Shown: positions 6,390-57,866, counted from the first letter of the stretch. The stretch: 64,000 bases of DNA from Patescibacteria group bacterium (GCA_041660605.1 JBAZWB010000001.1:622503-686502), one strand, 5' to 3'. Numbers and translations are program-made. Notes: generated by a model not told the origin, from the letters alone.

Positions 6390-7939
6390 AAGAATTTATT
6401 TGCAAAAGAAGAGTATAATGTCTTAATATCATTTTTGTTAACGCCCTTAAAAACGTATAATAAAACAAAATATACAGCCGCACCTAAAGGCATCAGAATG
6501 AATATTGATAAATCATTTTTTAATAATAAAAGCACGATACCCATCAAAGCAGCAGCACAAAATATTTTCAGTAAATAGTTTATCAACTTTTTTTTGTCAT
6601 ATTCTACGATTTTTCCAATCCATCTCAAACCCAGGAAAAACAGTACGATGCCGCTTATCAACGCAGCTACGGCAGCGCCATTTAAACTGTATTTTGGGAT
6701 TAAAATAATGTTTATTATTACATTAATAACCACAATAATGGCCATATTTATTGTGTTAACTACCTGCTTATTGCAGGCATTTAAAAATGCGCCAACAGGA
6801 AAATTCAAGAATACTACGATTAAACCCATAATTAATATCCTCAAAGGCTGAATTGAAGTTTCATAAACGTCCCCATACATAGTCAATATGATTTTATCAG
6901 CCAGTACGAATATTCCGATTGAGATTGGCAGCGATAATACCATCAAATAGTGCATCGCTTTTTCAAAGGTTTTAGCCAGATCTTTTCTCGAGTGTACGAA
7001 AAAATAGCTCATAGCTGGAAAAATACTGGCAGCAAAAGCTGAAGGAATAAACTCAAGCGCATATGTAAGCTTATGTGCCGTAACATACCACCCGACGAAG
7101 CTTTGCCCGGAGATCTTCAGAAGCATGAATCTGTCAGTATAAGTGTAGATTTTGACGAAAATTGCAGCAATTGCAAAAGGTAAAGCGAACTTCATAAACT
7201 TTTTAATGATTTCCATATCCCAGCGCAGCGTTACCCGAATCTTCGCTTTCTTAATCAGCATTGTAAGAGAAAATACAAAATTAAAAATACTTCCTGCGGC
7301 TACTGCAATAAAAAGAGCTTGTAATCCCCAATTCAATGAAATACTTAAAACGCCGAAAATAATGGTTAATATTTGCGTACCAATCATTCCCATTGCTTCA
7401 AATTTCATGTTTTGCAATCCTCGGAAAACCGCAAAAAAAGTCAAGGTAAATGTATCTAAGGCAACTATAACTGCATCAAGATATAAAACCGTTTTTACAA
7501 TATTTGAGTAATTAGAAAAATTTGTGTACAAACCCATAGAAAGTACCACGACCAAAGCAAAAATTAATTTTATGCCTAATACACTGCCAAGATATGATTC
7601 GGTTTTATTCGGGTCTCTGGCAATTTCACGCACCAAAACCACACTTAAACTGAAATCTATCAGGATAAGAAAAATAGGTATTAAAGATTTTACCGGATCA
7701 TAAAGTCCCAGATCCACAGGTCCCAGATATCTGGCAATATATACAAAATACAAAAAAGAGAGAATCTTTTGCAGTATAAAAGCGATGGTAAGATAGCTAG
7801 TATTTTTTAAAATTCTCTCCTGAGCTTGACCGTTATTATATGACGAGTCAATTTGATTAGCGTTTTTGCCATTGAGGAGCTCGTCGTGCTTTTTTAAGTC
7901 CATATTTTTTTCTTTCTTTGACACGAGAATCCCGGACAA
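6386..7939 (-). CDS. Wzx-like polysaccharide flippase (MOP/MATE superfamily)
   Basis: About 12-14 TM helices and a typical Wzx size. It is adjacent to the glycosyltransferases. The annotated 5' end overlaps the rpsI 3' end by 83 nt with no in-frame internal ATG, so the true start is uncertain. Confidence 0.65.
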   Translation of the reverse strand: MSGILVSKKEKNMDLKKHDELLNGKNANQIDSSYNNGQAQERILKNTSYLTIAFILQKILSFLYFVYIARYLGPVDLGLYDPVKSLIPIFLILIDFSLSVVLVREIARDPNKTESYLGSVLGIKLIFALVVVLSMGLYTNFSNYSNIVKTVLYLDAVIVALDTFTLTFFAVFRGLQNMKFEAMGMIGTQILTIIFGVLSISLNWGLQALFIAVAAGSIFNFVFSLTMLIKKAKIRVTLRWDMEIIKKFMKFALPFAIAAIFVKIYTYTDRFMLLKISGQSFVGWYVTAHKLTYALEFIPSAFAASIFPAMSYFFVHSRKDLAKTFEKAMHYLMVLSLPISIGIFVLADKIILTMYGDVYETSIQPLRILIMGLIVVFLNFPVGAFLNACNKQVVNTINMAIIVVINVIINIILIPKYSLNGAAVAALISGIVLFFLGLRWIGKIVEYDKKKLINYLLKIFCAAALMGIVLLLLKNDLSIFILMPLGAAVYFVLLYVFKGVNKNDIKTLYSSFANKFL

Positions 7940-8399
7940 GCAAATTTTTAGATTTTAATATAGGCTTCAAACTAGCATCCAAAGTCACCAGAATTCGGCT
8001 AATACCGAGCTGTATGCTGTAAGCTTGGCCACGCACGCCTCCACCCGTTACTTTAACACTGAAATCGCCAGTATTGCTAAAATTTGTAATCTTTATCGGT
8101 TCAGCTACAATTTGCCGTTCTTCAAAAATTGGGAAATAAGCATTTAAATCTTTCCCGTTTATGCTAATTTTACCATTTCCTTTTTTATAATATCTAACCC
8201 TGGCTACAGCCGATTTGCGTCTCCCTACACAGAAAACATATTCCTTTTTTACAATATTTTTTTCCGCAATTGGTATTGAAACCTTTTCTTGAGCTAAATC
8301 AGTTTTTATTGTTTTCTTTTTTGTGACTGCATGTTTCTTTTTTTTATCAGAAGTTCGCAGTATTTTTGATTTTAATTTAATAGGCGTCATATCAGACAA
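7857..8399 (-). CDS. rpsI: 30S ribosomal protein S9 with a lysine-rich N-terminal extension of about 55 aa
   Basis: GRRKSAVARVRYYKKGNGKISINGK...LVRDSRVKERKKYGLKKARRAPQWQKR is a canonical S9 core and C-terminus. Confidence 0.9.
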   Translation of the reverse strand: MSDMTPIKLKSKILRTSDKKKKHAVTKKKTIKTDLAQEKVSIPIAEKNIVKKEYVFCVGRRKSAVARVRYYKKGNGKISINGKDLNAYFPIFEERQIVAEPIKITNFSNTGDFSVKVTGGGVRGQAYSIQLGISRILVTLDASLKPILKSKNLLVRDSRVKERKKYGLKKARRAPQWQKR

Positions 8400-13917: not shown

Positions 13918-14991
13918 CTATTTTATTATTGCACCACCACCCAGCATTCTCTTACCTTGGTACAATACAATAAATTGGCCTGGCGTAATTGCTCTTTGTT
14001 TTTTATTAAATGTTAATTGATAATAATTATTTGATTTGTTGACTTTACATGCCTGCAAAGGCTGCCTGTACCTGATTCTGGCTTTGCATAAAATTGGAAA
14101 GTGCGTGGTTTTATTTATCCAATTTATTTTTTTTATTACCGCACAATTTTTATACAATTTGCTTTTCAACGAATCATTACAAACAACCAAAATATTTGTT
14201 TTAAATTTCTTTTCGCAGACATAATATGGCTTTTTTGCAGCTATATTTATACCATGTCTCTGCCCTATAGTGAAGAATGGAAGCCCGTCGTGTTTTCCGA
14301 GAACGACGTTTTTTTCGTCTTTTATAAGCCCTGGTTTAATATTGATAAATTTTTTAATAAAATCTGAAAATTTTACTTTTCCAATAAAACAGATTCCCTG
14401 ACTGTCTTTTTTATCATATACCGGCAATCTGTATTTTTTCGCAATTTTTCTGACTTCCTGTTTTTTAAACCGGCCCAGAGGAAACAATGAGTGATGAAGT
14501 TGTTTTTGAGTTAATAATGACAAAAAATAAGACTGATCCTTTTTTTTATCTATTGCTTGTAATAATGTATATTCACTGTTTTTGAGTACTTTTTTCTGAA
14601 CATAATGGCCAGTTGCAATAAAATCTGCTCCCATTTTTTTTGCCTTTTCCAGAAAAACTTGAAACTTTATCTCCTTATTGCACAGCATGTCGGGATTTGG
14701 AGTTATTCCATCTTTATACCCATTAATTAAGTAATTTACAACCTTTTTTCTGTATTGCTCTTCAAAAATTTCAATTTTTCCAGGTATCTGTATTTTTTTA
14801 CAAACTGCTTTAAAATCAGCTATATCGTCTTTCCAAACGCATTGATCAGCCAATGGGTCAGACCAATTCTTCATATATACCCCAGTTACATCATACCCCT
14901 GTTTTTTTAGTAAAAGGGCGGCAACAGAAGAGTCTACGCCGCCTGACATTGCGACAAATACATGACTTTTTTTTTCTTTATTCATTTTCAA
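13918..14991 (-). CDS. mnmA: tRNA-specific 2-thiouridylase MnmA
   Basis: VFVAMSGGVDSSVAALLLKKQGYDVTGVYMKNW is a PP-loop SGGxDS motif, with a typical MnmA C-terminus. Confidence 0.9.
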   Translation of the reverse strand: MKMNKEKKSHVFVAMSGGVDSSVAALLLKKQGYDVTGVYMKNWSDPLADQCVWKDDIADFKAVCKKIQIPGKIEIFEEQYRKKVVNYLINGYKDGITPNPDMLCNKEIKFQVFLEKAKKMGADFIATGHYVQKKVLKNSEYTLLQAIDKKKDQSYFLSLLTQKQLHHSLFPLGRFKKQEVRKIAKKYRLPVYDKKDSQGICFIGKVKFSDFIKKFINIKPGLIKDEKNVVLGKHDGLPFFTIGQRHGINIAAKKPYYVCEKKFKTNILVVCNDSLKSKLYKNCAVIKKINWINKTTHFPILCKARIRYRQPLQACKVNKSNNYYQLTFNKKQRAITPGQFIVLYQGKRMLGGGAIIK

Positions 14992-16283
14992 ATATTTTCA
15001 ATTACTTCTCTGATGTTTTTCATTATTAAAGAATTGTAGTCAGATTCAGTAATATTTGACGCAGCGAGAATGGCATTTTGGGGTTTATGATTTCTTCTTC
15101 TCTGATATTTTCTTGGGTAGTTATTTTCAATACTGCCATTTGAAAATATATAAACATTAATCCTTTTTAATTTATTAATTAATTCAATTTCTGATTCTGC
15201 AAAACGTCCTTTAATGACTTTTTGGATGACTTTTATTGCGGTATCATAGAGCGCGTCACGATCCAGTAGTACAATAAATGGAATATTGAACATTTCCAGC
15301 AAATCGGCATAAATATCAATATTACTCTTACCATAGGTTTGAATTACTTTGATATTTTTTTCTCCGTGATAAAATCGGTCAATCATCGATCGCATTAAAA
15401 TATGATCAGAGGGTCCCTCTACCAGCAAGACTTTGTCCGCAAAAAACATCTCGCAATTTTCGGCATTTAGCTCCTGTTTTAACCGATCGTAATTAATTTT
15501 TTTACCCAGTAACCTTGGAGAGTATACGTGAATTGATTTTTCATCCCTGGTTACTCTGAATAGTCGATGTAAATTTGTGGTATGAATGAAAATTGGCGAA
15601 TGTGTTGTTAAAAAAATCTGGTCAAAATTATTTTCATTTTCGATGATATCAAGTAATTTTTTTACTAAGGCAGGATGCAGATGAATTTCCGGCTCTTCTA
15701 AGAGCAAAATCGTGTATTGGGGATGAAATAAATATAATAAAATCGTGAAAACTGATTTAAATCCATCTCCTAAATTATTGAAGATTTCAGCCATATTATC
15801 GCTTGACCTGACAAAAATATCATCGGTAATCAAAAGCTTGGGTATTTTTTCGTTTAATAGTTCCGTAAAACGCTTGAATTCATCAGGATATTTTTCCTTA
15901 AAATTCAGATAATCTTTTCTAATTAAATTGACATCAGGAGGGTTTGTAGCTCTTAGACGGATAATGCATCTTTTAAGAATATTTTGCGCTTTTAATAGAG
16001 TAATTTTTTCACCGTCAAGATAAAAAACCTTTAAATTGCCTCGCTGATGTAATTCTAATTCTGTGCCAAGATCACTGGTAAGGCTGAATAAAGCATCAAT
16101 TCTTGCATTCTTGTCGCATAATTTTATATTTTTTGTTGAATACAGCTGATTTATGGCATCAAGAATACTGGTTTTACCAACATTATTCTGACCTATGAAA
16201 ATATGGATTTTACCAGGGTTTTTTAAATAAAATGGATCATTTATACCTCTGTATTTCTGAATATTCAATTCTTTTATACGCAT
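14988..16283 (-). CDS. OLD-family ATP-dependent endonuclease, with an N-terminal ABC-type ATPase and a C-terminal TOPRIM domain
   Basis: Walker A is FIGQNNVGKTSILDAI. The Walker B/D-loop is TILLLEEPEIHLHPAL and the H-loop is FLTTHSP. The TOPRIM motifs are VLLVEGPSDHIL and VLLDRDALYD. It overlaps the mnmA start by 4 nt. Confidence 0.7.
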   Translation of the reverse strand: MRIKELNIQKYRGINDPFYLKNPGKIHIFIGQNNVGKTSILDAINQLYSTKNIKLCDKNARIDALFSLTSDLGTELELHQRGNLKVFYLDGEKITLLKAQNILKRCIIRLRATNPPDVNLIRKDYLNFKEKYPDEFKRFTELLNEKIPKLLITDDIFVRSSDNMAEIFNNLGDGFKSVFTILLYLFHPQYTILLLEEPEIHLHPALVKKLLDIIENENNFDQIFLTTHSPIFIHTTNLHRLFRVTRDEKSIHVYSPRLLGKKINYDRLKQELNAENCEMFFADKVLLVEGPSDHILMRSMIDRFYHGEKNIKVIQTYGKSNIDIYADLLEMFNIPFIVLLDRDALYDTAIKVIQKVIKGRFAESEIELINKLKRINVYIFSNGSIENNYPRKYQRRRNHKPQNAILAASNITESDYNSLIMKNIREVIENI

Positions 16284-16318: not shown

Positions 16319-16774
16319 TTAATAAAGCCGTTCAACAGTTAATTTTTTATAAAATAAACTTAGTGATTTCACTTGCTGTTCGTTTGGTTCAATTAATGGT
16401 CTTTTGGTTTTTATTTTTTTAATCGCTTTTTCGGGCTTCATATTGTCTCTCATTACAAAATAGGCTGCTACTAATGTTGGCGAACGACCTTCGCCTGCAC
16501 GACAGTGAATATAGCATTTCATTTTATTTTTTACTGAATTTGCGATAAAATCGGCTCCGATTTTCAGTTGAATCTGAGATGGTGCAGTAAAATCATATAC
16601 CGGCAGCCAGAGAAAGCCAATAACACTGGACGGAGTATCTTCTTTTTCTTCCTGCAGATCAACATCGGTTTTTATGCCTATTTTTAGCAATTGCTGAAAA
16701 TGCTTCTTGCAGCAGATAGATGTGCCAATATAAATATATTTTTCAATCTGTGAATATTCCAAATGACGTTTCAT
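16319..16774 (-). CDS. Dual-specificity/tyrosine protein phosphatase (CX5R family)
   Basis: The active-site P-loop is HCRAGEGRSPTLVAAYFV (HCxxGxxRS/T). Confidence 0.7.
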   Translation of the reverse strand: MKRHLEYSQIEKYIYIGTSICCKKHFQQLLKIGIKTDVDLQEEKEDTPSSVIGFLWLPVYDFTAPSQIQLKIGADFIANSVKNKMKCYIHCRAGEGRSPTLVAAYFVMRDNMKPEKAIKKIKTKRPLIEPNEQQVKSLSLFYKKLTVERLY

Positions 16775-17995: not shown

Positions 17996-18002
17996 AATTA
18001 AT

Positions 18003-18203
18003 TTAACTTATTTTATTATTTGAGTCAGAATTTCTATAAATCAGATAAATGCCAATAATTATTATTATCACAGGTAACCAAATATTTTCCACCCACTGAT
18101 AGCCAAGATTGCCTAATAACCAAAAAATTCCAGTAATTATCATAATTATTGGCCAAAAAGATATTTTAACTTTTTTCAAATTGCTATCACTCATTTTTCT
18201 CAA
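18003..18203 (-). CDS. Small membrane protein, a paralogous LiaF/PspC-type TM hairpin module
   Basis: WPIIMIITGIFWLLGNLG...WLPVIIIIIGIYLI is the same motif as in the flanking genes. It overlaps the upstream gene by 17 nt. Confidence 0.45.
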   Translation of the reverse strand: MRKMSDSNLKKVKISFWPIIMIITGIFWLLGNLGYQWVENIWLPVIIIIIGIYLIYRNSDSNNKIS

Positions 18204-18690
18204 ACTCTTCCTGATGATTTTCTAGCTTATTTCTTTTATACAATAAAAATAAACCGGCAATTATTATTATTATAGGCCACCATTTGCCATCGGTAACCGT
18301 GCTGAGAAGTACTATGGCGGAGACGGTAGTCAAGATCCAGCCAGGTATTAGATAACCTCTATTCTTTTTTTGTGGGAAATAATAAGCGCAAAAGAAACCC
18401 AGGCCTATTGCCAGGGTAAACAAGAAGGAAGTTTCGCCGGCAAACTTATAATTTGTATATTCATTATAAAAAAAGTATAAACTATATATTATTAATATCG
18501 TACCTGGTATCAATAAGCCGCCGTCTCTATTTTTATTCCAAAAAAATATCACCCATAATGCTATGCCAGGCAAAAGTAAAAAAATAGGCCAAAATGAGCC
18601 AAAATTTATATCTAATCCAAATTGATCAGCCAGCAATAATAGTCCTAGAGCGATCATTACAACTCCCCAAAATATTCTTGATTTAGACAT
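18187..18690 (-). CDS. Membrane protein with repeated LiaF/PspC-type TM modules
   Basis: GVVMIALGLLLLADQFG...WPIFLLLPGIALWVIFF and WWPIIIIIAGLFLLY repeats are present, with 4-5 TM helices. Confidence 0.5.
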   Translation of the reverse strand: MSKSRIFWGVVMIALGLLLLADQFGLDINFGSFWPIFLLLPGIALWVIFFWNKNRDGGLLIPGTILIIYSLYFFYNEYTNYKFAGETSFLFTLAIGLGFFCAYYFPQKKNRGYLIPGWILTTVSAIVLLSTVTDGKWWPIIIIIAGLFLLYKRNKLENHQEEFEKNE

Positions 18691-18753
18691 ATCGAAAATA
18701 GATTATGTTCTAAACATAGCACATAATTTCCAATTTTTCAATAATCACTAATT

Positions 18754-20382
18754 TTATATTTTTACGATCTGCCCAGGTTTCAATGTGTGTGAATTATTCA
18801 TCTTAGGCTGATGAGGACGAAAGTTATTTTTTGCTACAGGTTTAAATTTGGGTTTTTCTTGGATCGCCTCAGGATGCTTGTCGGGGCGCTTATTATAAAA
18901 ACTCTGTGGTTTTTGCATTAATGCCTGTTGCAAGGAAATTCCCTTATTACTGCTGTCCAGTGTAATGGTTTCCAATTTGCCTATTTCAATCTCTGTCTTT
19001 TTCTCAGGCTTATTGTGAAAATTAGGAGTACTTTTTGGATGGTTAAAGGCTGATTTTTTTTGAGGGGGTTTATCGTATCCCTTTTCTTCTTTCATTACTT
19101 CATCAACGCCGGTCCAGCGTACTATTTTCTCTTCTACAATTTTACGCGGTTTTGTATACCTTTCACGGGAAACTTTAACAACTTTTCCTTTGTTATTTGT
19201 TAAAGCTGCTTCCGGCGGTAACGTTGTTGCGGAAAATGGTTCAGAGGCAACACCATCAATCATTAATTTTAAATAAACATTATATTTCGTTAAATTCAAA
19301 AGATCATCTTCTGTAAAAGTAGGAAAAAATTCTTTTGCCAAAAATTCAGCATCTGCTGCACCGACCCTAAAGCACATTATGGTACCAACGTTACCAAAAA
19401 CCGCAGCTCTCACTTCTTCATCCAGCTGTTCGATGTATTGATGAGCAAGAACTAAACTAAGTCTGTATTTTCTCGCTTCAGATAAAATACTGGCAAAACT
19501 TTCTGTGGCAAAATTTTGAAATTCGTCTACATACAAATAAAAATCTTGCCTGTCCTTTTCTTCAATGTCAACGCGGCTCATAGCGGCCAATTGTATGCGG
19601 GTTATCATCATGGCGCCCAATAAGGAAGAGTTATCTTCACCAATTCTACCCTTGGATAAGTTAAGCAGTAATATCTTATGATTATCCATCAAATTTCGTA
19701 AATCGATGGTACTTTTTGGTTGTCCAACGATATTCCTGATGATTGCGCTTGAGAGGAACTGCCCCACTTTATTTTGAATAGGCGCTATCGCTTCGTTTCT
19801 AAAATTTGTATTGTAGTTTGCGTATTCATCTACCCAGAAACTTTTTACAATCGGATCAGTTAATTTGGATACTACTTTTTGCCTGTATCTTTTATCAACC
19901 AAAATTCTGGCAATGCCGAGCATCGTCGAGCCAGGAGATTCCAAAAGGGCTAAAATTGCGTTATTTAATATATATTCCATTCTAGCGCTCCAGACACCTT
20001 CCCATATTTTTGTGAAAACACCCATTAATCCGGAAGCAACTAAATGGCGCTGAGCCGGATCAACGCTTTCCAGGACATTAAAACCGATAGGAAAATCTAC
20101 ATCTGCCGGATTGAAATAAATTACGTCGTTAATACGATATGATGGGATATACTCAATTACTTTTTCAACTAGATCGCCGTGCGGATCAACTAGGGCCAGG
20201 CCGCGCCCAGATCTAATGTCAGAAATGACCATATTTTCCAAAACGGTAGTTTTCCCCATTCCAGTTTTACCGATTAAATACATATGCCGGCGCCGGTCGT
20301 CTTCTTTTATGCCAAAAACATTGTTCGCATTGCGAAAATTTGTTTTTGCAAAAGGCGTAATGTCGCTCTTATTATTTTCCAT
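18754..20382 (-). CDS. FtsK/HerA/TrwB-superfamily P-loop ATPase (DUF87 / T4SS-coupling-protein-like). The core is cytoplasmic and the C-terminus is a low-complexity tail.
   Basis: Walker A is LIGKTGMGKTTVL, followed by LVDPHGDL. Walker B is LYVDEFQNF and the arginine-finger/sensor region is ARKYRLSLVLAHQYIEQL. There is no TM helix. The C-terminal roughly 120 aa are K/P-rich. Confidence 0.65.
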   Translation of the reverse strand: MENNKSDITPFAKTNFRNANNVFGIKEDDRRRHMYLIGKTGMGKTTVLENMVISDIRSGRGLALVDPHGDLVEKVIEYIPSYRINDVIYFNPADVDFPIGFNVLESVDPAQRHLVASGLMGVFTKIWEGVWSARMEYILNNAILALLESPGSTMLGIARILVDKRYRQKVVSKLTDPIVKSFWVDEYANYNTNFRNEAIAPIQNKVGQFLSSAIIRNIVGQPKSTIDLRNLMDNHKILLLNLSKGRIGEDNSSLLGAMMITRIQLAAMSRVDIEEKDRQDFYLYVDEFQNFATESFASILSEARKYRLSLVLAHQYIEQLDEEVRAAVFGNVGTIMCFRVGAADAEFLAKEFFPTFTEDDLLNLTKYNVYLKLMIDGVASEPFSATTLPPEAALTNNKGKVVKVSRERYTKPRKIVEEKIVRWTGVDEVMKEEKGYDKPPQKKSAFNHPKSTPNFHNKPEKKTEIEIGKLETITLDSSNKGISLQQALMQKPQSFYNKRPDKHPEAIQEKPKFKPVAKNNFRPHQPKMNNSHTLKPGQIVKI

Positions 20383-20384
20383 AA

Positions 20385-21809
20385 TTAAGCAAATGGTAAA
20401 TTAACAGGCGGTGTACCTTTAGGTTCGGCAGTTGACGTCGGCTTACCAGAGGCAGGTTTAGATGGTTGTTTCGAAAAAACGCTTTCTTCTTCCATTGGTA
20501 ATCCCATAGGCGGAGTTGATTTTCTTGCGTCAACCGTCTGTACGGAAGGTACTTTTATGTCAATTTGTGGGAAATGCCATAATGTAGCCAATTCTTCTAT
20601 ATTCAGAACGAATCCCGGCCTGCCTCTTTTCATGCTTCTATATCTATAACCCCATAAAATTCTTCTAATTCTACCTAGTAATCTTGTTTTTATGAAATAG
20701 TAGTCAATTTTAGTCCTGGTTTTTTTATTAACAACAAAACCATTTAAATTCTGCGAAGTAAATTGCGCGAATGCGCCGTTTATTGCATACGTACCCTTAG
20801 ACTTATTAAATCTGTCTTTTGGTGCTGAATATATGTATCTAATTTTTGTTTTGAAGCCAAGCTTGCCGATTTTCATGCCAACTGCTTCTACCACCTCTTT
20901 TTCCTGGGGAGATAAATGCTGCATCATACTCGGCCATTCCCTCTCTTTTTTTTGCTTTTGTTCGCCCATTTCAGTAGTTGGGACAAATGTAGCGGTAAAT
21001 GATTCAGATAACCCCCGACCTATTTCCCTGGGAAAATACATCAGATCAACTCCTTTTTTATCAGATTTCTTGCCAATCAGCTTATTAATGAGTGCTAAAC
21101 CTTTTTTCCTCCATTCCTCTCCAACTGGCGCTATGATAATTTGTATCCATAAGCTCTCTCCGGGACCCATGCGACTCATAATTTCTAAAATTGAAGCCAT
21201 GGGATCCATTAATTTCTGCGATAAACTGTGCTCAAATAACGGATAAGTCCGTATCGGATATAAATCGGTATTTTGTAATTTGAATTCTGTCCCCCATATA
21301 TCATATTTAGGATGATAAAATTCTAAAGGTTTTGGTATCATATCAACATAATCCTCAACTTCGGTAATTTCAGCATCTGGATACTGCGCATAAACGGCCG
21401 CTTCAACTAAATCGCGAAACTTAACTGGAGTGCGAATTAAAAACTGGATATACCCTTCTATACTGACAATTTCCAAACTAAAGCTTGGCTGCGTATATCC
21501 TTTGATATATTTATCTTTTAAATTTCCAGATTTTTTTATGCCGTACAAATGAGAAAAAATATGTTCAACAGCCTTAGGACTTTGTTCATTATTTTTAGGA
21601 ATGTCAATTGCCAAAAGGACAAACTTCAAGGAACTATCATAACGATTGCGAATATACTCCTTATATGCTTCCCATAATCCCCAAAATATTACAGCTAGCA
21701 CGAAAATCCATCCGCCTTTGAGAAAAATAAAAACCATGGCACTTAACGGGTTTGAAGTGCTTGGCAGGGAGTTAAATAATGTTACCGGATCAAAAAGTAA
21801 AAAATTCAT
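20385..21809 (-). CDS. Hypothetical membrane-anchored protein, operonic partner of the ATPase
   Basis: One or two N-terminal TM helices (MVFIFLKGGWIFVLAVIFWGLW). There is a 2-nt spacing to the downstream ATPase and a 19-nt spacing from the upstream regulator. The tail is P/S/T-rich. I recognise no known domain. Confidence 0.45.
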   Translation of the reverse strand: MNFLLFDPVTLFNSLPSTSNPLSAMVFIFLKGGWIFVLAVIFWGLWEAYKEYIRNRYDSSLKFVLLAIDIPKNNEQSPKAVEHIFSHLYGIKKSGNLKDKYIKGYTQPSFSLEIVSIEGYIQFLIRTPVKFRDLVEAAVYAQYPDAEITEVEDYVDMIPKPLEFYHPKYDIWGTEFKLQNTDLYPIRTYPLFEHSLSQKLMDPMASILEIMSRMGPGESLWIQIIIAPVGEEWRKKGLALINKLIGKKSDKKGVDLMYFPREIGRGLSESFTATFVPTTEMGEQKQKKEREWPSMMQHLSPQEKEVVEAVGMKIGKLGFKTKIRYIYSAPKDRFNKSKGTYAINGAFAQFTSQNLNGFVVNKKTRTKIDYYFIKTRLLGRIRRILWGYRYRSMKRGRPGFVLNIEELATLWHFPQIDIKVPSVQTVDARKSTPPMGLPMEEESVFSKQPSKPASGKPTSTAEPKGTPPVNLPFA

Positions 21810-21828
21810 TTCGTTGCTAATTTTGTTT

Positions 21829-22944
21829 TTACTCCACTAATGCATATGTCCCATCCGAGAGTTTTTTGAATTTTGTTTTATCGGTTAGCGCTAAATGAAT
21901 GGTATTCTTTTTTACCAGTCTTTGTTCAAGTACTTTCTCAACTAAATCATCGCGCGTTAATGGTTTTTCATTTTTTTGAATAATCTCTTTCAATACGTTG
22001 GCCACTACCCCAGGCTTATATCCCCACTCTTTCAGAGCATAAATGCCTCGGCCGACTAGCACATATTGATCGTTTAATATAAGTTCGTTATGGACAGTCG
22101 GAGGATAGGCTTTTCTGGTGTCAAATTTTGCGTCATTTATTCTTTTTGCAATCTCCGTAAAATGAAGAGGTTTACCATATTTTTTTAAAATTAAATAAAT
22201 TTTATCATTCATTCTTTTCGGAATTATACTCCCCCACTCAATTAATCCATATTCGTTAAAAGGATTTTTAGATATTTTCGAGCTTATTTCCAGATATGAA
22301 TGAATCGCTTCTACAGACAGTTGGATCTGATTTTTTTGGTAAAACTCGGTTTTTTGAAATTCTGAAATTACGTCATCTAGAATTACCGGTTTACTTTTTT
22401 CCTGAATTATTCGAAGTAACTCATTAATGGATTCTTTCATCAATAATATTGGCGCATGCAATATCTGCCATGATTTTTTAAATTCAATACTGAGTTTGAT
22501 TTCTTTGAATTTATGCTTAAGTAATTCAGAAATGATAAATATAATATTCTGACGATTAATTGAAGTATCTCCAACCGCCTGTAATAAAAGTTTAAGCATC
22601 ATTTCTTGATTTATTACTCCGCCATATTGTTCCAAAACAGAAAAAATTGTAGCTTCAACTGGCGAAATAATGTCGTTGAAGTTCTTTATCTTTTTAATTT
22701 TTTTTATCCCCGTTGACTCAATCTGCCTTATTCGCTCTCTGGTCACCTGATATGTTTCTCCAATTTTTTCTAAAGTTTCTCTTTCTTTGCCTAGTAATCC
22801 ATGGCGTCTCCTCAATACATCCTCTTCCCGTGAAGTAAGATTTTTTAATAATAAAGAGACTACTTCCGTAGGATTAAATTGCTCAATCTCATTCGTTTTT
22901 TTACTGCTAATTATACGGTCTAAAATTGAATTATTTTGATCCAT
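21829..22944 (-). CDS. DNA-binding protein with a sigma-70 region 4-like HTH near the N-terminus and a HARE-HTH winged helix in the C-terminal region
   Basis: LTSREEDVLRRRHGLLGKERETLEKIGETYQVTRERIRQIESTGIKKIK matches sigma region 4. KPLHFTEIAKRINDAKFDTRKAYPPTVHNELILNDQYVLVGRGIYALKEWGY matches the HARE-HTH consensus. Confidence 0.55.
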   Translation of the reverse strand: MDQNNSILDRIISSKKTNEIEQFNPTEVVSLLLKNLTSREEDVLRRRHGLLGKERETLEKIGETYQVTRERIRQIESTGIKKIKKIKNFNDIISPVEATIFSVLEQYGGVINQEMMLKLLLQAVGDTSINRQNIIFIISELLKHKFKEIKLSIEFKKSWQILHAPILLMKESINELLRIIQEKSKPVILDDVISEFQKTEFYQKNQIQLSVEAIHSYLEISSKISKNPFNEYGLIEWGSIIPKRMNDKIYLILKKYGKPLHFTEIAKRINDAKFDTRKAYPPTVHNELILNDQYVLVGRGIYALKEWGYKPGVVANVLKEIIQKNEKPLTRDDLVEKVLEQRLVKKNTIHLALTDKTKFKKLSDGTYALVE

Positions 22945-23098
22945 AGCATTAATTTAATGAAATAACATCTTTAGTATAGCATACTTTGGTATTTGTGTCA
23001 AGAGATTCCTCTGATTAAAACAAATTATTGATTTATTTGCAAATAAAAAAACATACATATTAATATATATGGGTATTGAAATTTATACTTATTTAACT

Positions 23099-24004
23099 TT
23101 ATTTGTTGGGTCTGAGTGAAAAATTTCTCCAAACTACAAGCAATGGGCTGGCAATGAATATAGATGAATATGTACCTGCAGTTATGCCGATCAGCAAAGC
23201 TAGAATGAAATACTGGATTGAACTTCCCCCGAATAAATACAGTGCCAGTAAAACTAATAATGTAGTCAATGATGTGTTTAGTGATCTAACCATCGTTTGA
23301 TTAACACTTTCATTTACCGTTTGTTCGAAAGTTTTTTCTGCATGCAATTTCAATCTTTCTCTTATTCTATCATAAACCACGATGGTGTCATGCACTGAGA
23401 ATCCCAAAACGGTAAGTAAAGCAGTGATAAATAATATATCGATCTCTACGTTAAAAAATTTTCCTAAAATTGCAAAGATCCCCACTACTATAAAAATATC
23501 ATGGACTAAAGCTATGACAGCACCCAATCCATACACCCATGGTTTAACGATATTGCCTGAAATTTTTCGAAAAGCAAAAGATATATAGAGAATTATCGAT
23601 AGTAAAACCAGTATCACAGCTATTATGGCTTTCTGTTTCAGCTCTTGCCCTATAATCGGGCCGATTGATTCAAAACTTCCTTCCTGTACATCAGGATATT
23701 TAATTTTTAATTTTGCTAAAATATCCTGATATGTCTGATTATCAATATTTTTAAGTCTGATTGTAAATTCGTTATTTCCTAGCGGCTGAACAAATATATT
23801 ATTGTCATTGGCAACTTCATTTACTAGGCTTTTGATATCACTGATTGACGGCTGTTCATTTGGGATTGTTACTCTGATCAAACTGCCACCAGTAAAATCG
23901 ATGCCCAGTTTCAAACCGCCCATGGCAATTGCAATAATGCCGGGAATCATAATAATCGCCGAAACTATAAACCAGATATTTCTTTTACCAATTAAATTAA
24001 ACAT
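23099..24004 (-). CDS. secF: Protein translocase subunit SecF
   Basis: LGIDFTGGSLIRV, followed by 6 TM helices. It is immediately downstream of secD. Confidence 0.9.
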   Translation of the reverse strand: MFNLIGKRNIWFIVSAIIMIPGIIAIAMGGLKLGIDFTGGSLIRVTIPNEQPSISDIKSLVNEVANDNNIFVQPLGNNEFTIRLKNIDNQTYQDILAKLKIKYPDVQEGSFESIGPIIGQELKQKAIIAVILVLLSIILYISFAFRKISGNIVKPWVYGLGAVIALVHDIFIVVGIFAILGKFFNVEIDILFITALLTVLGFSVHDTIVVYDRIRERLKLHAEKTFEQTVNESVNQTMVRSLNTSLTTLLVLLALYLFGGSSIQYFILALLIGITAGTYSSIFIASPLLVVWRNFSLRPNK

Positions 24005-24007
24005 AAA

Positions 24008-25687
24008 TTAACTCTGTTGAATTTTATTTTTAAGTGTTCGGCCAATTAATCCCAGATGCTTCTCAAGCCAGCCAGAAACCAGCAGTCGTAAAAACGTTCT
24101 GGTAACGGTAATTGCCGAAAACATGCTGACCAAAACACCGATACCCAGGGTTATAGCAAAGCCTTTAATAACACTAGTTCCGAACCAGGCCAGGATAAAA
24201 CACGTAATTAAGCTTGATATATTCGAATCACGGATTGAAAGCCAGGCCCGACTAAATCCTTCTTCAATTGCCAGACCTAAATTTTTACCATCTCTTAATT
24301 CTTCACGTGTGCGCTCAAAAATAAGTATATTTGCGTCTACGGCCATTCCGATTGATAATATAAAACCAGCGATTCCTGCCAAGGTTAAAGTGATGCCAGT
24401 TAATTTGAAAATTGAAACGGTAATTAAGGCATATATAAACAAGGCGATAACCGATATCAATCCTGGCAGGCGATAATAAACTATCATGAATATAGCCACC
24501 AAAGTTAAACCGATTACACCGGCTAATAAGCTTTTTTGTACTGATGCCTGGCCCAGTGTTGCGCCGATCGAATTTTGAGATACCAAAGTGATCGGTACCG
24601 GCAGAGCGCCGGCATTCAACCTCTGTACAAGCATTTTAGCTTCTTCAAGAGTAAATCCACCACCACCTGATATTACCGCACTACCATCTAAAATTGGCTC
24701 ATTCACTTTCGGTAAGGAGATCGGAGAACCATCCAAATATATGCCAACCACTTTACCGACATTTCGTTTTGTAATTTCAGCAAATAAATCCCTTCCTTCT
24801 GTATTAAATTCCAGCAAGACCTGGGGCTCATTTGTGTTTTGATCAAATTGGACGGAAGCGCGTTTTAATTCTTTACCCGAAAGTCCAGTATTGGTAAATT
24901 GCGTCTGCCCTGTAGTTGACTGTTTAGTAAATAGAATATGACTGGCGCTGACTTGATTGTCCTTTTCTCCAGTTTTTTTGATGATATGATAACCAAAATC
25001 CGTTTCTACGATCTCAGGATAGATTTCGTCAACTTTCATCTTATCAAAAACTACATTGGCAAATTCAGGCACCATCTGTTCTCTGGTAAAAAAGCCGAGA
25101 TCACCACCTTTTTTCTCTTGAGTTGTCTGATCGGTATTTCCCGGATCCTGCGAATATTGGTTAGCTAAAGCTGCAAAATCTGCGTTAGGCTTGAGTGCTT
25201 CCTGCAGAATTTCAGCCGCTTTTTGCTTAGCCTGAGCATTTGCATCGTCAATGGTTTTAATCTGATCAGCAGTAAGCGTGGTAGTAGTCTCCTCTTTAAA
25301 TTCCAAAAGAGGGGTCTCACCAATCATTTTTATTGCTTCATCGACATTTGTAACGCCAGCTAATTCCACAATAACCCGCCATTTTTCCCCTACTTTACTA
25401 GTTTGTATAACAGGCTCGGAAACGCCAAAAGCATTTACCCTGCGTTCAATTACGTCACGGACGCCATCAATAGAGGAGGCCTGGTCAGCGGCTGGAACTT
25501 GAGAAACATTCGCATCATATACTAATTGGGTTCCTCCCTGTAAATCCAAGCCTAAATGAATTTTTACTTCTTTAAAATAACTGCCAATATGGATATCCGG
25601 GCCTTTAGGATAAGCAAATAAACCGGCCAAAATAGCCAAAATAATAATACCCGCAAATGTCAGCCAGATTTTTTTCCTAAAACTCAT
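24008..25687 (-). CDS. secD: Protein translocase subunit SecD carrying a parvulin-like (PpiC-type) PPIase domain inserted in the periplasmic P1 head
   Basis: SecD motifs GLDLQGGTQLVYDANV, GETPLLEF and LNAGALPVP are present, with the RND-like TM bundle. Inside P1, roughly aa 140-250, lies DFAALANQYSQDPG...GGDLGFFTREQMVPEFANVVF...TDFGYHIIKK...SASHILF. Confidence 0.88.
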   Translation of the reverse strand: MSFRKKIWLTFAGIIILAILAGLFAYPKGPDIHIGSYFKEVKIHLGLDLQGGTQLVYDANVSQVPAADQASSIDGVRDVIERRVNAFGVSEPVIQTSKVGEKWRVIVELAGVTNVDEAIKMIGETPLLEFKEETTTTLTADQIKTIDDANAQAKQKAAEILQEALKPNADFAALANQYSQDPGNTDQTTQEKKGGDLGFFTREQMVPEFANVVFDKMKVDEIYPEIVETDFGYHIIKKTGEKDNQVSASHILFTKQSTTGQTQFTNTGLSGKELKRASVQFDQNTNEPQVLLEFNTEGRDLFAEITKRNVGKVVGIYLDGSPISLPKVNEPILDGSAVISGGGGFTLEEAKMLVQRLNAGALPVPITLVSQNSIGATLGQASVQKSLLAGVIGLTLVAIFMIVYYRLPGLISVIALFIYALITVSIFKLTGITLTLAGIAGFILSIGMAVDANILIFERTREELRDGKNLGLAIEEGFSRAWLSIRDSNISSLITCFILAWFGTSVIKGFAITLGIGVLVSMFSAITVTRTFLRLLVSGWLEKHLGLIGRTLKNKIQQS

Positions 25688-34730: not shown

Positions 34731-35111
34731 TCAATTTTTAATCAGTTTAAATAATGTTTTTCCATTTGATTTTTTTATGTACTGCAATGCCTGGCGATGT
34801 GATTGCTTTAACATCTTTTCTAAAATTGACTGTAATTTAATAATAATTATCCTTTTATTTTTGTAGAAAACCGCCTTTTCGAATTCTTTTTTCCTGATTG
34901 TTTTTATCTTATTTTTTCCAAGCGTACATCCGGTAGAAAGCTGTAATCCGTCAAGCAGGCATGAAACTGGAGGATTTATTTTTGTATAAATCGTAATTTT
35001 ATCAATATTTGATAGATGCCTTCTCACATAAGCACCCATGACATATCCCAAAACTACATATGGTCCAATATGGCCATGAAGTGATTTTATAATCTTTAAA
35101 TTAACTTTCAT
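34731..35111 (-). CDS. FmdE-family domain protein
   Basis: LHGHIGPYVVLGYVMG...DGLQLSTGCTLGKN resembles the FwdE/FmdE HGHxCPG...TGCTxGK pattern. Confidence 0.45.
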   Translation of the reverse strand: MKVNLKIIKSLHGHIGPYVVLGYVMGAYVRRHLSNIDKITIYTKINPPVSCLLDGLQLSTGCTLGKNKIKTIRKKEFEKAVFYKNKRIIIIKLQSILEKMLKQSHRQALQYIKKSNGKTLFKLIKN

Positions 35112-35989
35112 TTCTTCAAATAATCTGAAATGATTTTATAAACTAATTTTGCTGCTAAGAAATCTGGTGCCTCAATACCGGGCATTGGTTTTAATTCCAC
35201 TACGTCAGCGCCTATCAAATTTACTTTGCTGATTAACTCATCAATAAATTTAATGGTTTCATGCCAGTAATGACCGCCTGGTTCAGGAGTACCCACGGAT
35301 GGCATAATGCTCGGATCAAAAAAATCCAGATCAAAAGTTAAATATACGTTCTTTGTTAACTTTTTCAATACTTCATTGATATTTGGCAGCTGTGGCGCAA
35401 AATAGACTGATTTTTTGGATTTTTTCTGAAGGTATTTATTGATCTGCGGATTCATATTGCGAACGCCGAATGAAACTACTGGAATCTTTTTTTCTTCTAA
35501 CCGGCGAATGACGCAAGCATGGCTGAATGGCGTGCCTTCATATTCAGACAAAACGTCAGTATGGGCGTCAAAATGCAAAATTGATATATTTTTATACTTT
35601 TTTTGCAGGGCTTCGATACAGCCGTATGTGATTGAATGTTCGCCGCCCAATACCATTGGAAATTTATCGTACTTAACTGCAAAATCATAGACAGCCTGGC
35701 TAATGCCGCCCAAGGAAAGTTTAATAGAGCTTTTATGCGGTCTAATCTCTTCTGCAGTAAAAAAATCGCTGGTTTTAATGTTAAAAGCAGTGCCATTTTC
35801 TTCTATATCCCAAAGTTCATCCATAAATCTAGAAGCATTTATTATCGCCTGGGGACCCTGGCTGGTACCGACTCCATAAGATACCGTTGATTCAAAAGCT
35901 ATTGGTAAAACAACGACTCTGGCGCTTTCAAACGTTGCGCCGAAATTTGCCCCAAAATTAAACGGTAATATTTCGTAATTTTTTTTCAT
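35108..35989 (-). CDS. speB: Agmatinase (ureohydrolase/arginase family)
   Basis: Mn-binding motifs GGEHSIT, HFDAHTD and DLDFFDPS are present. The gene lies in a polyamine context beside speA. Confidence 0.8.
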   Translation of the reverse strand: MKKNYEILPFNFGANFGATFESARVVVLPIAFESTVSYGVGTSQGPQAIINASRFMDELWDIEENGTAFNIKTSDFFTAEEIRPHKSSIKLSLGGISQAVYDFAVKYDKFPMVLGGEHSITYGCIEALQKKYKNISILHFDAHTDVLSEYEGTPFSHACVIRRLEEKKIPVVSFGVRNMNPQINKYLQKKSKKSVYFAPQLPNINEVLKKLTKNVYLTFDLDFFDPSIMPSVGTPEPGGHYWHETIKFIDELISKVNLIGADVVELKPMPGIEAPDFLAAKLVYKIISDYLKK

Positions 35990-36002
35990 TTTAGAAAATT
36001 AA

Positions 36003-37103
36003 TTAAAGGTTTAGTAAGTAAGCAGCTAACCAGGGAAAAACAACGGTAACATCACTTTGAATTATTTGGTAATAGCTTTGCGTAGAAAGCTTATCCCAGG
36101 TAATTTTTTCTTTACCTCCGGCTCCAGAATACGAACCAAAAGACATTGGCGAAGAACCGATTTCAATAAATCCTGCCCAGCTCCTGACATTTTTAATTCT
36201 TAAATCATGCTTCAAGGATGGAATAACGCAAATCGGAAAATCAGCTGCGATGCCTCCGCCTAACTGGAGGAAAGCAACCGGATGTTCTTTTGAAACCGAC
36301 ATATACCAATCATAAAGAAAGTGAAAATATTCAATCCCGGTTTTCATGACATTTTGATTGAAAGTAACATCACTTTTTTTCTTATGCTTACCGCGATACG
36401 TATAGCTGGAAAATATATTGCCCATAGTTGAGTCCTCAAAGCCTGGAATAACGATGGGAATATTTTTCTCAAAAGCTGCATAGGCCCAGCAGTCATTTAT
36501 ATTGCTCTGCGGATCAGGCGAGATTAATTTCTCCGAAAATAATCTTCTGAAATATTCGTGCGGAAAATAGCGTTGAGATTTTTTTTCAGCCTGCCGCCAC
36601 ATTTTCAAAAGATGCGGTTCCATAATTCTGACACTCTCATCTTCAGGCAAAAAAGTATCCGTTATTCTGCGCAGGCCAGCGTCTCTAAGCTCAGCTTCCT
36701 GTTCCGGCGTCAGTTCAGTGTACCTGGGAATATAAGCATAATGCGAATGGGCTACATACCTATAATAAGATTCCTCATGGTTCGCGCCCGTAGCCGAGAT
36801 CAGATGGACCTTGTTTTTTCTGATCAATTCAGCCAGCATCACTCCTATTTGAAATGAACTTAAGGCTCCGGCTAAAGTCACTACCAGCTTGCCACCATTA
36901 TCAAGATGTTTTTTTAGCCATTCCGCTGATTGTAAAGTAGCGCCGGCATTGCAGTGCTGTAACGTTATTTTAGCATACGCAGATATACGCGCTTCCTGTT
37001 TTTTAATATTTTCAGTCAGAGATAATCCGGAATTCTTTTTATTCTCCAGGATAATTAATTTCCGCAAAGATGGAGATAGCTTATTTAATGCTTTATTATC
37101 CAT
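36003..37103 (-). CDS. Deoxyhypusine synthase-like protein, a homospermidine-synthase-type NAD-dependent aminobutyl transferase
   Basis: Features of the DHS family are present: VTLAGALSS, ISATGANHEE and GGGIAADFPI. It sits between the agmatinase and speA. Confidence 0.75.
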   Translation of the reverse strand: MDNKALNKLSPSLRKLIILENKKNSGLSLTENIKKQEARISAYAKITLQHCNAGATLQSAEWLKKHLDNGGKLVVTLAGALSSFQIGVMLAELIRKNKVHLISATGANHEESYYRYVAHSHYAYIPRYTELTPEQEAELRDAGLRRITDTFLPEDESVRIMEPHLLKMWRQAEKKSQRYFPHEYFRRLFSEKLISPDPQSNINDCWAYAAFEKNIPIVIPGFEDSTMGNIFSSYTYRGKHKKKSDVTFNQNVMKTGIEYFHFLYDWYMSVSKEHPVAFLQLGGGIAADFPICVIPSLKHDLRIKNVRSWAGFIEIGSSPMSFGSYSGAGGKEKITWDKLSTQSYYQIIQSDVTVVFPWLAAYLLNL

Positions 37104-37122
37104 AAATTAAAATGATTAATTA

Positions 37123-38406
37123 TTATAAATAATCCCAAGTTTGCAATAAATCGCTGTCGGAATACCATCTCTCACCGATATCAACTCTATAAAACATATT
37201 TTGCAGCCGGATATTTTTAATGCGATTATAAGCCTGCCTTCTGGCGTCATCGACTGTATTGCCGCTGCCGGAAATAACCAGGGCGTAACCTGATTGTCCG
37301 GCTATTCTGAGTTTTCCGTCAATCATTTTCACGTCACCCAGATGGATGCCGTCCCAATCCGGATGATTTCTCCTGAATAATATCGATAAATCGCGGTAAA
37401 CGGAGATAGTTTCCTGATCATCTGAAAGATATGGATCAATAATACAGCAAATGCCCACTTGAAATCCTTTTTTTACGGGAATGTTGAAAGTTTCTCCTGA
37501 AGCCAGCCTATAAAAAAATTCTCCCAGCGGCATCTCTATCCCTATTGCCTGTACATCTATAGTCGGATAGCCGAATCGGGAAGTAAATTCGAGCGGATAG
37601 ATGCCGCGGGCATTAACAATGCAATTAATATCAAAATAGCCGACATAACCAGAGGCCGTAAGCTTTTCCTTAAGCTTACCCATGGTATTTTTAAACAAAC
37701 CATTTGGCTGAGCCCAAAACATTAGTGCTCCCATGTCCCCTGTCAGTGGCCCTAGATCACCGGGAAAAAGCCTTTTGTGCTCAAAATTAATATTAATAGG
37801 GGTTAGGAATTCTTTGCCGTTAAAAAATGCTCCGACCGCGGTTTCTACCCCTGAGGCGTATTTTTGTAATTGAAATGTCTTTATTTTTGATCGCCAGATT
37901 CTTTTATTTGACTGCAGCAGCTCAAGTATGTCAGCACCGTTTTCCTCCTCTCCTATAAACAATAGATCTTTGAACTCCTGGGCAGCGCCACTTGGCTTAA
38001 AAACATAACGTCCGGGATTTTTTTGCAAAAAATGAATGGCTGAATCAAAACTATGGAAATCCCAGTGCGGTAAAATCAGAAGTCCGGCTTTCTGCATTTC
38101 TGTCTGACCAAAATTTCTATCATCTTCCAACTTGTCGGTATAAACACTGCCGCCAATTACCTTTTTCCCGGATTTTCTTAAAGCATCCGCTTCATTACCA
38201 AAACCCACATCATCAAATATGATCACGTCAGCCCAATCTATAAAATCTTTCCAATTTTTTACTTTCATTAAAATACCGTCATAAACGTCAGAATCTGTTT
38301 TTGATTTGATATACACTTTAACTTCATGCCCTTCTTTTTGTATACGCCAGGCAATGTCACCGCTCAAGCTTTCCCATGAGACGAATAGAAATTTTTTATG
38401 TGTCAT
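37123..38406 (-). CDS. PurD-like ATP-grasp ligase (phosphoribosylamine--glycine ligase homolog) of uncertain substrate
   Basis: VFKPSGAAQ, FPGDLGPLTGDMGAL, YVGYFDINCIVNARGIYPLEFTSRFGYP and GNTVDDARRQAYNRIKNIRLQNMFYRVDIG align with the PurD A/B/C domains. The start was moved to MTHKKFLFVSW because the longer ORF to 38574 overlaps speA by 146 nt. Confidence 0.6.
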   Translation of the reverse strand: MTHKKFLFVSWESLSGDIAWRIQKEGHEVKVYIKSKTDSDVYDGILMKVKNWKDFIDWADVIIFDDVGFGNEADALRKSGKKVIGGSVYTDKLEDDRNFGQTEMQKAGLLILPHWDFHSFDSAIHFLQKNPGRYVFKPSGAAQEFKDLLFIGEEENGADILELLQSNKRIWRSKIKTFQLQKYASGVETAVGAFFNGKEFLTPININFEHKRLFPGDLGPLTGDMGALMFWAQPNGLFKNTMGKLKEKLTASGYVGYFDINCIVNARGIYPLEFTSRFGYPTIDVQAIGIEMPLGEFFYRLASGETFNIPVKKGFQVGICCIIDPYLSDDQETISVYRDLSILFRRNHPDWDGIHLGDVKMIDGKLRIAGQSGYALVISGSGNTVDDARRQAYNRIKNIRLQNMFYRVDIGERWYSDSDLLQTWDYL

Positions 38407-38428
38407 TTCCGTATATGATGTATAATAT

Positions 38429-51888: not shown

Positions 51889-51890
51889 TT

Positions 51891-53108: not shown

Positions 53109-53109
53109 A

Positions 53110-55401: not shown

Positions 55402-55413
55402 TAAAATACTACC

Positions 55414-57857: not shown

Positions 57858-57866
57858 TAAGATTTT

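Follow-up and report, generated by a model that had tools for sequence, protein, structure and literature searches.

A 64,000-nucleotide (nt) stretch of the genome of a Patescibacteria group bacterium (GCA_041660605.1 JBAZWB010000001.1:622503–686502; hereafter the window, within which positions are counted from the first nucleotide) carries two adjoining genes on the minus strand, one encoding a soluble ATPase of the VirD4/TrwB family (18754..20382; 542 amino acids, aa) and the other a DUF8128 (PF26449) partner protein (20385..21809; 474 aa) with a predicted N-out single-pass membrane anchor and cytoplasmic alpha/beta domain. Open reading frame (ORF) calls and the junction sequence (...GCT TAA TT ATG...) bear out what an initial annotation, made from the sequence alone, had described, namely two ORFs of these lengths with a 2-nt spacer (20383..20384) between the partner stop and the ATPase ATG, and the tight coupling of the ATPase to a membrane-anchored partner proposed there is matched by the adjacency of the two genes in other genomes (see below). 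Based on comparisons of sequences and profiles, the two genes encode, as separate polypeptides, one type IV coupling protein (T4CP), and they are collinear with the halves of single-chain T4CPs from Actinobacteria. The window is part of a Patescibacteria (Candidate Phyla Radiation; CPR) chromosome, and the exact proteins of the pair are also recorded in a Patescibacteria metagenome-assembled genome.

The four motifs by which the initial annotation had placed the ATPase in the FtsK/HerA/VirD4 clade, GKTGMGKTT (residues 38–46), DPHGD (66–70), LYVDEFQ (283–289), and ARKYRLSLVLAHQ (303–315), are all present, and their residues are mostly invariant in an alignment of 35 homologues, with the remainder conservatively substituted. 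The invariant positions include Walker A (GKTGMGKT, residues 38–45; 20248..20271, minus strand; G38 through K44) and Walker B (LYVDEF, residues 283–288; 19519..19536, minus strand; invariant from L283 through Q289), as well as >150 further positions. The ATPase was annotated as having no transmembrane (TM) helices of its own, and no hydrophobic 19-mer above a Kyte–Doolittle value of 1.6 was found in it (maximum, 1.33). The disordered K/P-rich C-terminal tail (residues 426–542; 18757..19107, minus strand), likewise described in the initial annotation, is apparent from both composition (18% K, 11% P) and the predicted local distance difference test (pLDDT) scores of an AlphaFold2 (AF2) model, which fall below 50 at residues 434–466, 469–479, and 494–531. 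Within the tail are two short conserved motifs, ISLxEAL (residues ~483–489) and a terminal LxPGQ[IV]V; L484 of the former is kept in all 35 aligned homologues, while the rest of both motifs is kept in most. Some CPR homologues (e.g., P0201 and P0226) have a treble-clef zinc finger (zf_Tbcl_2, CxxC...CxxC) inserted in the tail.

The clade assignment stood and could be narrowed to the VirD4/TrwB type by Pfam and by fold comparison. The nucleotide-binding domain, in which both Walker motifs are intact, scores above threshold against the T4CP family models TrwB_AAD_bind (49.2 bits; cut-off, 20.5; E = 4.7e-13), TraG-D_C (27.2 bits; cut-off, 22), and T4SS-DNA_transf (21.8 bits; cut-off, 20.1), with DUF87 also above its gathering score. 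The NCBIfam models for TraD, CD1115, TrbC, CedD, and VirB4 gave only sub-threshold matches, such that the equivalog thresholds of named T4CP subfamilies were not reached (SXT_TraD, 43 bits vs. 366; CD1115, 40 vs. 250), nor were those of the archaeal Ced ATPases for DNA import (CedD, 23.9 bits vs. 600; CedB, 14.6 vs. 700). Membership of the VirB4 family was not found either, with a score of 18 bits against the TIGR00929 cut-off of 643 and the two parts on separate ORFs, and Pfam did not detect an FtsK_SpoIIIE motor domain in the ATPase at E ≤ 0.01. The top PDB sequence matches are TrwB and DotL, and BLASTP aligned the ATPase to TrwB with 22% identity over 305 aa (E = 4e-10). In a Foldseek search with an AF2 model of modest quality (mean pLDDT, 64), the best matches were DotL (3.6e-6), Cagbeta, and TrwB, with HerA (6e-3) and the C-terminal domain of VirB4 (1.7e-2) well behind. 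Judged from the sequence and the predicted fold, the ATPase is a T4CP-family domain of the VirD4/TrwB type, and HerA, FtsK, and VirB4 identities are ruled out.

The initial annotation recognized no domain in the partner; this did not hold, as the precomputed annotation of the exact protein, and of nearly all of its >3,300 homologues, assigns it to PF26449 (DUF8128). The partner shares homology with the N-terminal half of long T4CPs from Actinobacteria. Direct scans of the partner against NCBIfam and a copy of Pfam without PF26449 gave no match, nor did a scan of 40 partner family members against the same Pfam copy at E ≤ 10. The annotated N-terminal TM anchor was recovered as the single hydrophobic segment of the protein (residues ~24–46; 21672..21740, minus strand), identified by hydropathy and flanking charges. 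The segment is preceded by no lysine or arginine and followed by four, which predicts that the N-terminus lies outside (N-out) and most of the protein in the cytoplasm. A polar motif, [HK]-G-G-W, lies within the TM helix (G32 is invariant and G33 nearly so in the family alignment), and residues 21–60 form a long helix in the AF2 model of the partner (pLDDT, 77; predicted TM-score, 0.72). The body of the protein is strongly conserved across the family, with an EELAxLWHFP motif near residue 405, and is followed by the P/S/T-rich tail noted in the initial annotation (residues 424–474; 20% P, 12% S, 10% T; pLDDT <50). The disordered linker in this tail is variable across the family and ends in a conserved C-terminal peptide, PPxNLP (residues 467–474; 20388..20411, minus strand; pLDDT <50), in which P468 is invariant and N470, L471, and P472 are conserved at ≥90%.

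A Foldseek search of the PDB with the partner model returned chains of R388 TrwK/VirB4 as all 13 of its best matches (E = 1e-5 to 1e-3). As all 13 were VirB4 chains, and neither a VirB4 structure limited to the C-terminal domain nor any other P-loop protein was among the 13, the cytoplasmic domain of the partner may resemble the N-terminal domain of VirB4. The partner profile had no match among PDB sequences, and the partner none in phage genomes. In a representative library, the best 150 of 3,100 profile matches were all of partner-like length (366–691 aa).

The ancestry of the pair was suggested by a tblastn search of the ATPase against plasmids, which recovered OG928_RS01290 (WP_331738717.1; 812 aa), annotated as a “conjugative DNA transfer family protein”, on a linear plasmid of Embleya sp. 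NBC_00896. Only the C-terminal half of this protein matches the ATPase of the window (31% identity; E = 3e-59). The gene lies between those for a VirB4-like ATPase and a Replic_Relax protein in what is a monoderm type IV secretion system (T4SS) cluster, with the order TrbL/VirB6-like, PrgI (VirB3-like), XF1762-family, VirB4-like ATPase, T4CP, Replic_Relax, and NlpC/P60+SLT hydrolase. Searching with the N-terminal 405 aa of OG928_RS01290 returned 96 proteins, for which every named source was actinobacterial. PF26449 is present in most of these, and many have it fused to PF10412, PF01935, or PF12696; DUF8128–T4CP homologues occur, for example, in Streptomyces, Frankia, and Nonomuraea. With a profile of the fused family built from an alignment of 20 proteins, hhalign aligned the CPR partner profile to positions 89–389 of the fusion (probability, 95.3%; E = 2.4e-8; 295 columns) and the CPR ATPase profile to positions 400–722 (probability, 100%; E = 9.6e-46). 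Against the single Embleya sequence the partner profile gave a weak match (E = 0.005), which the family alignment raised to the 95% level. An EELAxLxHxP motif at the domain boundary is common to the CPR partner and the fused family, and the Embleya fusion begins with one hydrophobic helix followed by an Arg-rich stretch, matching the design of the CPR anchor. The order of the genes in the window is the order of the domains in the fusion, which argues that the pair is a split DUF8128-type T4CP.

The split arrangement is widespread. Of the first 600 matches to a pattern among GTDB species genomes, 580 encode a relative of the partner. A set of 80 species-level loci of 17 kb was retained, and in 58 of these the ATPase gene directly follows the DUF8128 gene, always as a separate ORF (no fusion among the 58) and with a median spacer of 3 nt. 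Taken with the number of homologues found (>3,300 for the partner and >8,000 for the ATPase), this adjacency is far beyond chance. In ~20 loci, some titled Magasanikbacteria or Falkowbacteria, the ATPase gene is not adjacent and unrelated genes follow DUF8128. In 46 of 79 loci, DUF8128 is preceded by a gene with sigma70 region 4 and HARE-HTH domains, and the other recurrent neighbours are SecD/SecF (44 loci), MnmA (23), SecA (15), and AlaRS (13). The pair has the behaviour of a core chromosomal module, inherited vertically and retained by nearly all CPR bacteria.

Many GTDB records with this arrangement (SecDF, sigma-like gene, DUF8128, ATPase), which is typical of the CPR, are titled ‘uncultured Gammaproteobacteria bacterium’ (binchicken co-assemblies), with one titled ‘Candidatus Binatia’ and one ‘Acutalibacteraceae’; these titles look taxonomically wrong. 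A distant (21%) DUF8128-like gene followed by fragmented pieces of a T4CP-like ATPase occurs on two ~1-Mb circular Bacillaceae ‘plasmids’, NZ_CP062975.1 (Pontibacillus, 898 kb) and NZ_CP045273.1 (Priestia megaterium pFDU301A, 1.08 Mb), and on the latter a DUF8128-like part and the N-terminus of the ATPase share one ORF. The Pontibacillus replicon also carries flagellar and chemotaxis operons and, 7–14 kb away, a monoderm T4SS cluster (Mbov_0395 pilin-like; VirB4-like CD1110); these replicons may be chromids or the genomes of co-cultured small bacteria. Further, a plasmid of Sulfitobacter mediterraneus (NZ_CP081110.1, positions 7001–8188) has a 395-aa T4CP-like gene with 42% identity to the core of the CPR ATPase (E = 5e-97), which brings it closer than any actinobacterial homologue found. 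No DUF8128 gene adjoins it and transposase genes lie downstream, and it could be a case of horizontal transfer of a CPR-type motor.

In the window, the gene upstream of the pair (21829..22944, minus strand; 371 aa; 19 nt from the partner gene) has, by Pfam, a Sigma70_r4 domain at residues 32–85 and a HARE-HTH/RNA polymerase delta-like domain at residues ~244–307. It is probably co-transcribed with the partner gene, and the candidate roles for its product are an RNA polymerase accessory factor or a regulator of the DUF8128/ATPase pair. Ahead of this gene is a sigma-70-type promoter-like site (TTGACA-17-TATACT, with TG upstream; 22973..23001, minus strand), the top scorer in the scanned region 18000–23300 with 11 of 12 matches, which is a consensus match only and no evidence of function. 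A three-gene operon (sigma4-HARE-HTH, DUF8128, ATPase) transcribed from this candidate promoter is plausible, given the position of the site before the sigma-like gene and the lack of a convincing terminator downstream of the ATPase in the scanned region.

The neighbours named in the initial annotation (a transcription factor, an envelope module, and an OLD nuclease) are as described there, with LiaF-like membrane proteins downstream of the pair, the genes for which do not recur as neighbours in the related loci. The window also contains genes for ribosomal proteins, RpoA, AlaRS, MnmA, SecDF, and SecA, polysaccharide synthesis genes, a mur/ftsW cluster, and polyamine genes; the GC content of the pair (0.35–0.37) falls among the values seen elsewhere in the window, and Rfam and tRNA scans of the window gave no match. 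The OLD-family nuclease (14988..16283, minus strand; AAA_21/AAA_15 and OLD-like TOPRIM domains) shares 4 nt with the start of mnmA and adjoins a dual-specificity phosphatase (16319–16774, minus strand). Neither recurs in the 80 related loci, and the two look like lineage-specific insertions, possibly with a small defence gene among them. The SecD homologue (24008–25687, minus strand) has PpiC-type rotamase matches (PF00639/PF13616) besides the SecD domains in the precomputed annotation and appears to be a SecD–peptidyl-prolyl isomerase fusion. A polyamine-type cluster (35108–39997, minus strand) encodes an arginase/agmatinase-family protein, a deoxyhypusine-synthase-like protein, an ATP-grasp (GARS_A-like) protein, and an Orn/Arg decarboxylase, a combination unusual in a reduced genome. 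A type IV pilus cluster (50155–59993, plus strand) lies ~30 kb from the pair, a linkage that is not conserved, and includes a PilB-like ATPase, PilC, an N-methyl pilin, PilM, PilN, a 771-aa protein with a sub-threshold CarboxypepD_reg match, and a 611-aa protein with no Pfam match.

VirD4-like proteins have been surveyed across the CPR, with 5,713 homologues in 2,918 of 3,035 genomes, of which just 148 were near virB4, while VirB4 itself was found in 2,417 genomes (Quinonero-Coronel et al. 2025, PMC12102498). CPR genomes have about two VirD4-like genes each, almost never beside a T4SS, with a role that was left open (PMC12102498). In S. epibionticum, a member of the Saccharibacteria, the T4SS is essential and its cluster has no recognizable coupling protein of its own (Wang et al. 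2023, PMC10633639). According to the tables of that study, SEML1_0294 (Sigma70_r4 and HARE-HTH), a member of a Patescibacteria-enriched family, is essential by transposon sequencing (Tn-seq), while the gene directly downstream, SEML1_0293 (921 aa; TrwB domain at residues 402–719), is non-essential, although its normalized reads fall about 4-fold from T0 to T2 (5817, 2940, and 1372) and it is flagged as a core and Patescibacteria-enriched family. A second T4CP-like gene, SEML1_0142, is essential. Because the upstream sigma4-HARE-HTH gene is shared, SEML1_0293 is likely the orthologue of the pair in the window and, from its length and the position of its TrwB domain, is apparently fused.

These observations can be assembled into a model in which DUF8128 would anchor the ATPase, presumably a hexamer, at the inner face of the membrane, while the basic disordered tail, through ISLxEAL and LxPGQVV, would recruit substrates or adaptors as in TraD and DotL, whose C-terminal extensions serve as platforms for adaptor and substrate recruitment. 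Hydrolysis of ATP would then push a DNA or protein substrate toward an envelope channel, most likely the monoderm-type T4SS encoded elsewhere on the chromosome in most Patescibacteria, and the pair would act as a second, dispensable coupling protein that keeps an ancestral role of the DNA-transfer type. The complex, the hexamer, the kind of substrate, and the connection with a T4SS are all inferred, with the actinobacterial ancestry of the pair pointing to a T4SS. The T4SS-linked split coupling protein is the favoured reading, with moderate confidence.

Several observations weigh against that model, and some of them favour the main rival, in which the motor is the same (two subunits, membrane-anchored, T4CP-like) but now serves, by exaptation, as a T4SS-independent housekeeping DNA pump, either for DNA intake behind ComEC in competence or for FtsK/SftA-like clearing or segregation of chromosomal DNA at division. 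No T4SS, relaxase, or defence family recurs among the neighbours in the 80 loci, and scans of the 64-kb window found no VirB4, T4SS, relaxase, oriT-type gene, or integrase. For a T4CP, the conservation of the ATPase core is unusually high (median identity, 67% vs. 47% for SecF in the same loci, with the sigma-like protein at 41% and DUF8128 at 40%), which is in line with a pump maintained in core-genome synteny with secDF, mnmA, alaS, and secA and with inheritance that looks vertical. T4CP homologues occur in 96% of CPR genomes, as against 80% for VirB4, such that some CPR genomes keep them without a T4SS, and the authors of that survey state that exaptation cannot be excluded (PMC12102498). 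SEML1_0293 was called non-essential, as is comEC, while the T4SS genes of S. epibionticum are essential, and SEML1_0142 could be the real T4SS coupling protein of that species. The partner resembles VirB4 in structure alone (TM-scores of ~0.35), with no sequence-profile signal to TrwK, TrsD, or the Pfam VirB4 families (hhalign probabilities against single sequences of 0.5% for TrwK/VirB4 and 0.9% for pGO1 TrsD), and the AF2 model of the ATPase is poor at residues 289–383. A pump for DNA would also suit the basic tail, with its zinc finger in some homologues, and the conserved DNA-binding-type sigma4-HARE-HTH gene immediately upstream. Against such a pump, neither competence nor division genes are among the conserved neighbours in the 80 loci, the ATPase has no FtsK_SpoIIIE match in Pfam, and its nearest characterized relatives and the fused actinobacterial homologues all come from T4SS or conjugation clusters. 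An annotated ftsK in the Saccharibacteria strain TM7x counts against it too, and weakens the idea of the pair as a replacement for FtsK. On balance, exaptation is a tentative reading, possible but somewhat doubtful. A broader version, in which a membrane-docked, T4SS-free DNA pump for uptake, nucleotide scavenging, or chromosome handling would be found in the ultra-small cells of the Patescibacteria as a whole and its VirB4-like/VirD4 architecture would represent a surviving evolutionary intermediate between the two families of T4SS ATPase, appears unlikely.

The initial annotation had also raised a HerA-type defence role, in the manner of Sir2-HerA or DUF4297-HerA, to which MADS mad8 may be added, perhaps acting with the OLD nuclease 2.5 kb away, which is OLD/GajA-like. 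The ATPase does have a PADLOC match to mad8 (2.4e-15) and weak matches to HerA; these are similarities at the level of the superfamily, and the MADS detection rule, which calls for MAD6, MAD7, and MAD8 together, is left unsatisfied by a lone weak mad8-like match. The partner has no PADLOC match, HerA falls below the T4CPs in the fold search, and no Sir2, DUF4297, nuclease, or methyltransferase partner was found, with no effector conserved nearby and the OLD gene absent from the recurrent families of the 80 loci. The pair also occurs across CPR classes in a fixed housekeeping synteny, unlike a defence island. The PADLOC and neighbourhood analyses led to the rejection of the defence reading, which is largely refuted and very improbable. 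The remaining reading, in which a T4CP that was once fused has become a pseudogene, broken into the two ORFs, within a decaying integrated conjugative element, draws on the fused form in Actinobacteria, and apparently in Saccharibacteria, and on the fragmented appearance of the distant copies on the two Bacillaceae megareplicons. Yet the split is kept with intact ORFs in 58 of 58 adjacent cases, the invariance of the Walker motifs and many other positions is at odds with decay, neither an integrase nor a relaxase nor any other element gene is present, and the pair does not depart from the window in GC content; conservation largely refutes this reading, the chance of which is slighter still. 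Homologues of the ATPase do lie within an actinobacterial T4SS cluster, the kind of orthology that the initial annotation had named as telling against an uncharacterized machine, while the pair in the window is in no conjugative element.

Patescibacteria account for a large share of bacterial diversity and are host-dependent, and their envelope machines are the main clues to their lifestyle. Orphan T4CP homologues in the CPR, as a class of ATPase, and DUF8128, as a Pfam entry, were known before, and neither DUF8128 nor PF26449 is mentioned in the searchable papers. New, as far as the searchable literature goes, are the pairing of the genes, the split-versus-fused link to actinobacterial T4CPs, the core-genome synteny, and, if the predicted models are borne out, the VirB4-like fold of DUF8128. 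With these, one of the CPR orphan T4CPs gains an anatomy, as a two-piece coupling protein with DUF8128 as its membrane subunit, and an ancestry, through the single-chain DUF8128–T4CPs of actinobacterial conjugation clusters, while DUF8128 gains its first functional context. The Tn-seq phenotypes also become interpretable, with the syntenic counterpart dispensable and another T4CP-like paralogue essential, and, as S. epibionticum is the one CPR species open to genetics, the pair is directly testable there. Should independence from a T4SS prove true, the pair would represent a new kind of housekeeping translocase for DNA or protein.

Compared with characterized systems, the window ATPase has the nucleotide-binding-domain fold and motifs of TrwB, VirD4, DotL, and Cagbeta, and solved T4CPs are the closest structures to its model. 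TrwB has two N-terminal TM helices of its own, while the ATPase of the window lacks any and depends for its anchor on DUF8128, encoded as a separate ORF; the low identity to TrwB and the distance from the NCBIfam TraD and CD1115 cut-offs set it further apart. Unlike a coupling protein encoded with a T4SS (VirB4) and/or a relaxase, the pair has neither beside it in the window or in the conserved neighbourhoods of the 80 loci. For the cytoplasmic domain of the partner, VirB4 (TrwK) is the sole source of PDB matches to the predicted model, and VirB4 and VirB3–VirB4 follow the same logic of design, with a membrane-proximal N-terminal domain attached ahead of an ATPase of the FtsK/HerA superfamily. 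However, similarity of VirB4 to the partner is absent at the sequence level, and the ATPase is nearer to VirD4 than to the VirB4 C-terminal domain. TrsD of pGO1, a short protein like the VirB4 N-terminal domain, has no similarity to the partner, and the pair is without the cognate effector or partner of the HerA defence systems and MADS.

The orphan T4CP homologues of the CPR belong to the same population of proteins, being VirD4-like, almost universal, and rarely near virB4, though the DUF8128 partner, the split-versus-fused architecture, and the fused actinobacterial relatives were not reported in that study (PMC12102498). SEML1_0293, apparently fused at 921 aa, differs from the two ORFs of the window in the same respect as the long actinobacterial T4CPs. 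The latter are single polypeptides encoded in plasmid T4SS clusters, whereas the pair occupies two ORFs in a housekeeping chromosomal setting, and the K/P-rich tail with its conserved motifs was observed only in the CPR proteins. The ATPases are ~31% identical, while the DUF8128 halves are related at the level of profiles only (19%, hhalign). Across these differences, the actinobacterial proteins and the pair share the same order of modules, a TM helix followed by DUF8128 and then a VirD4-type nucleotide-binding domain.

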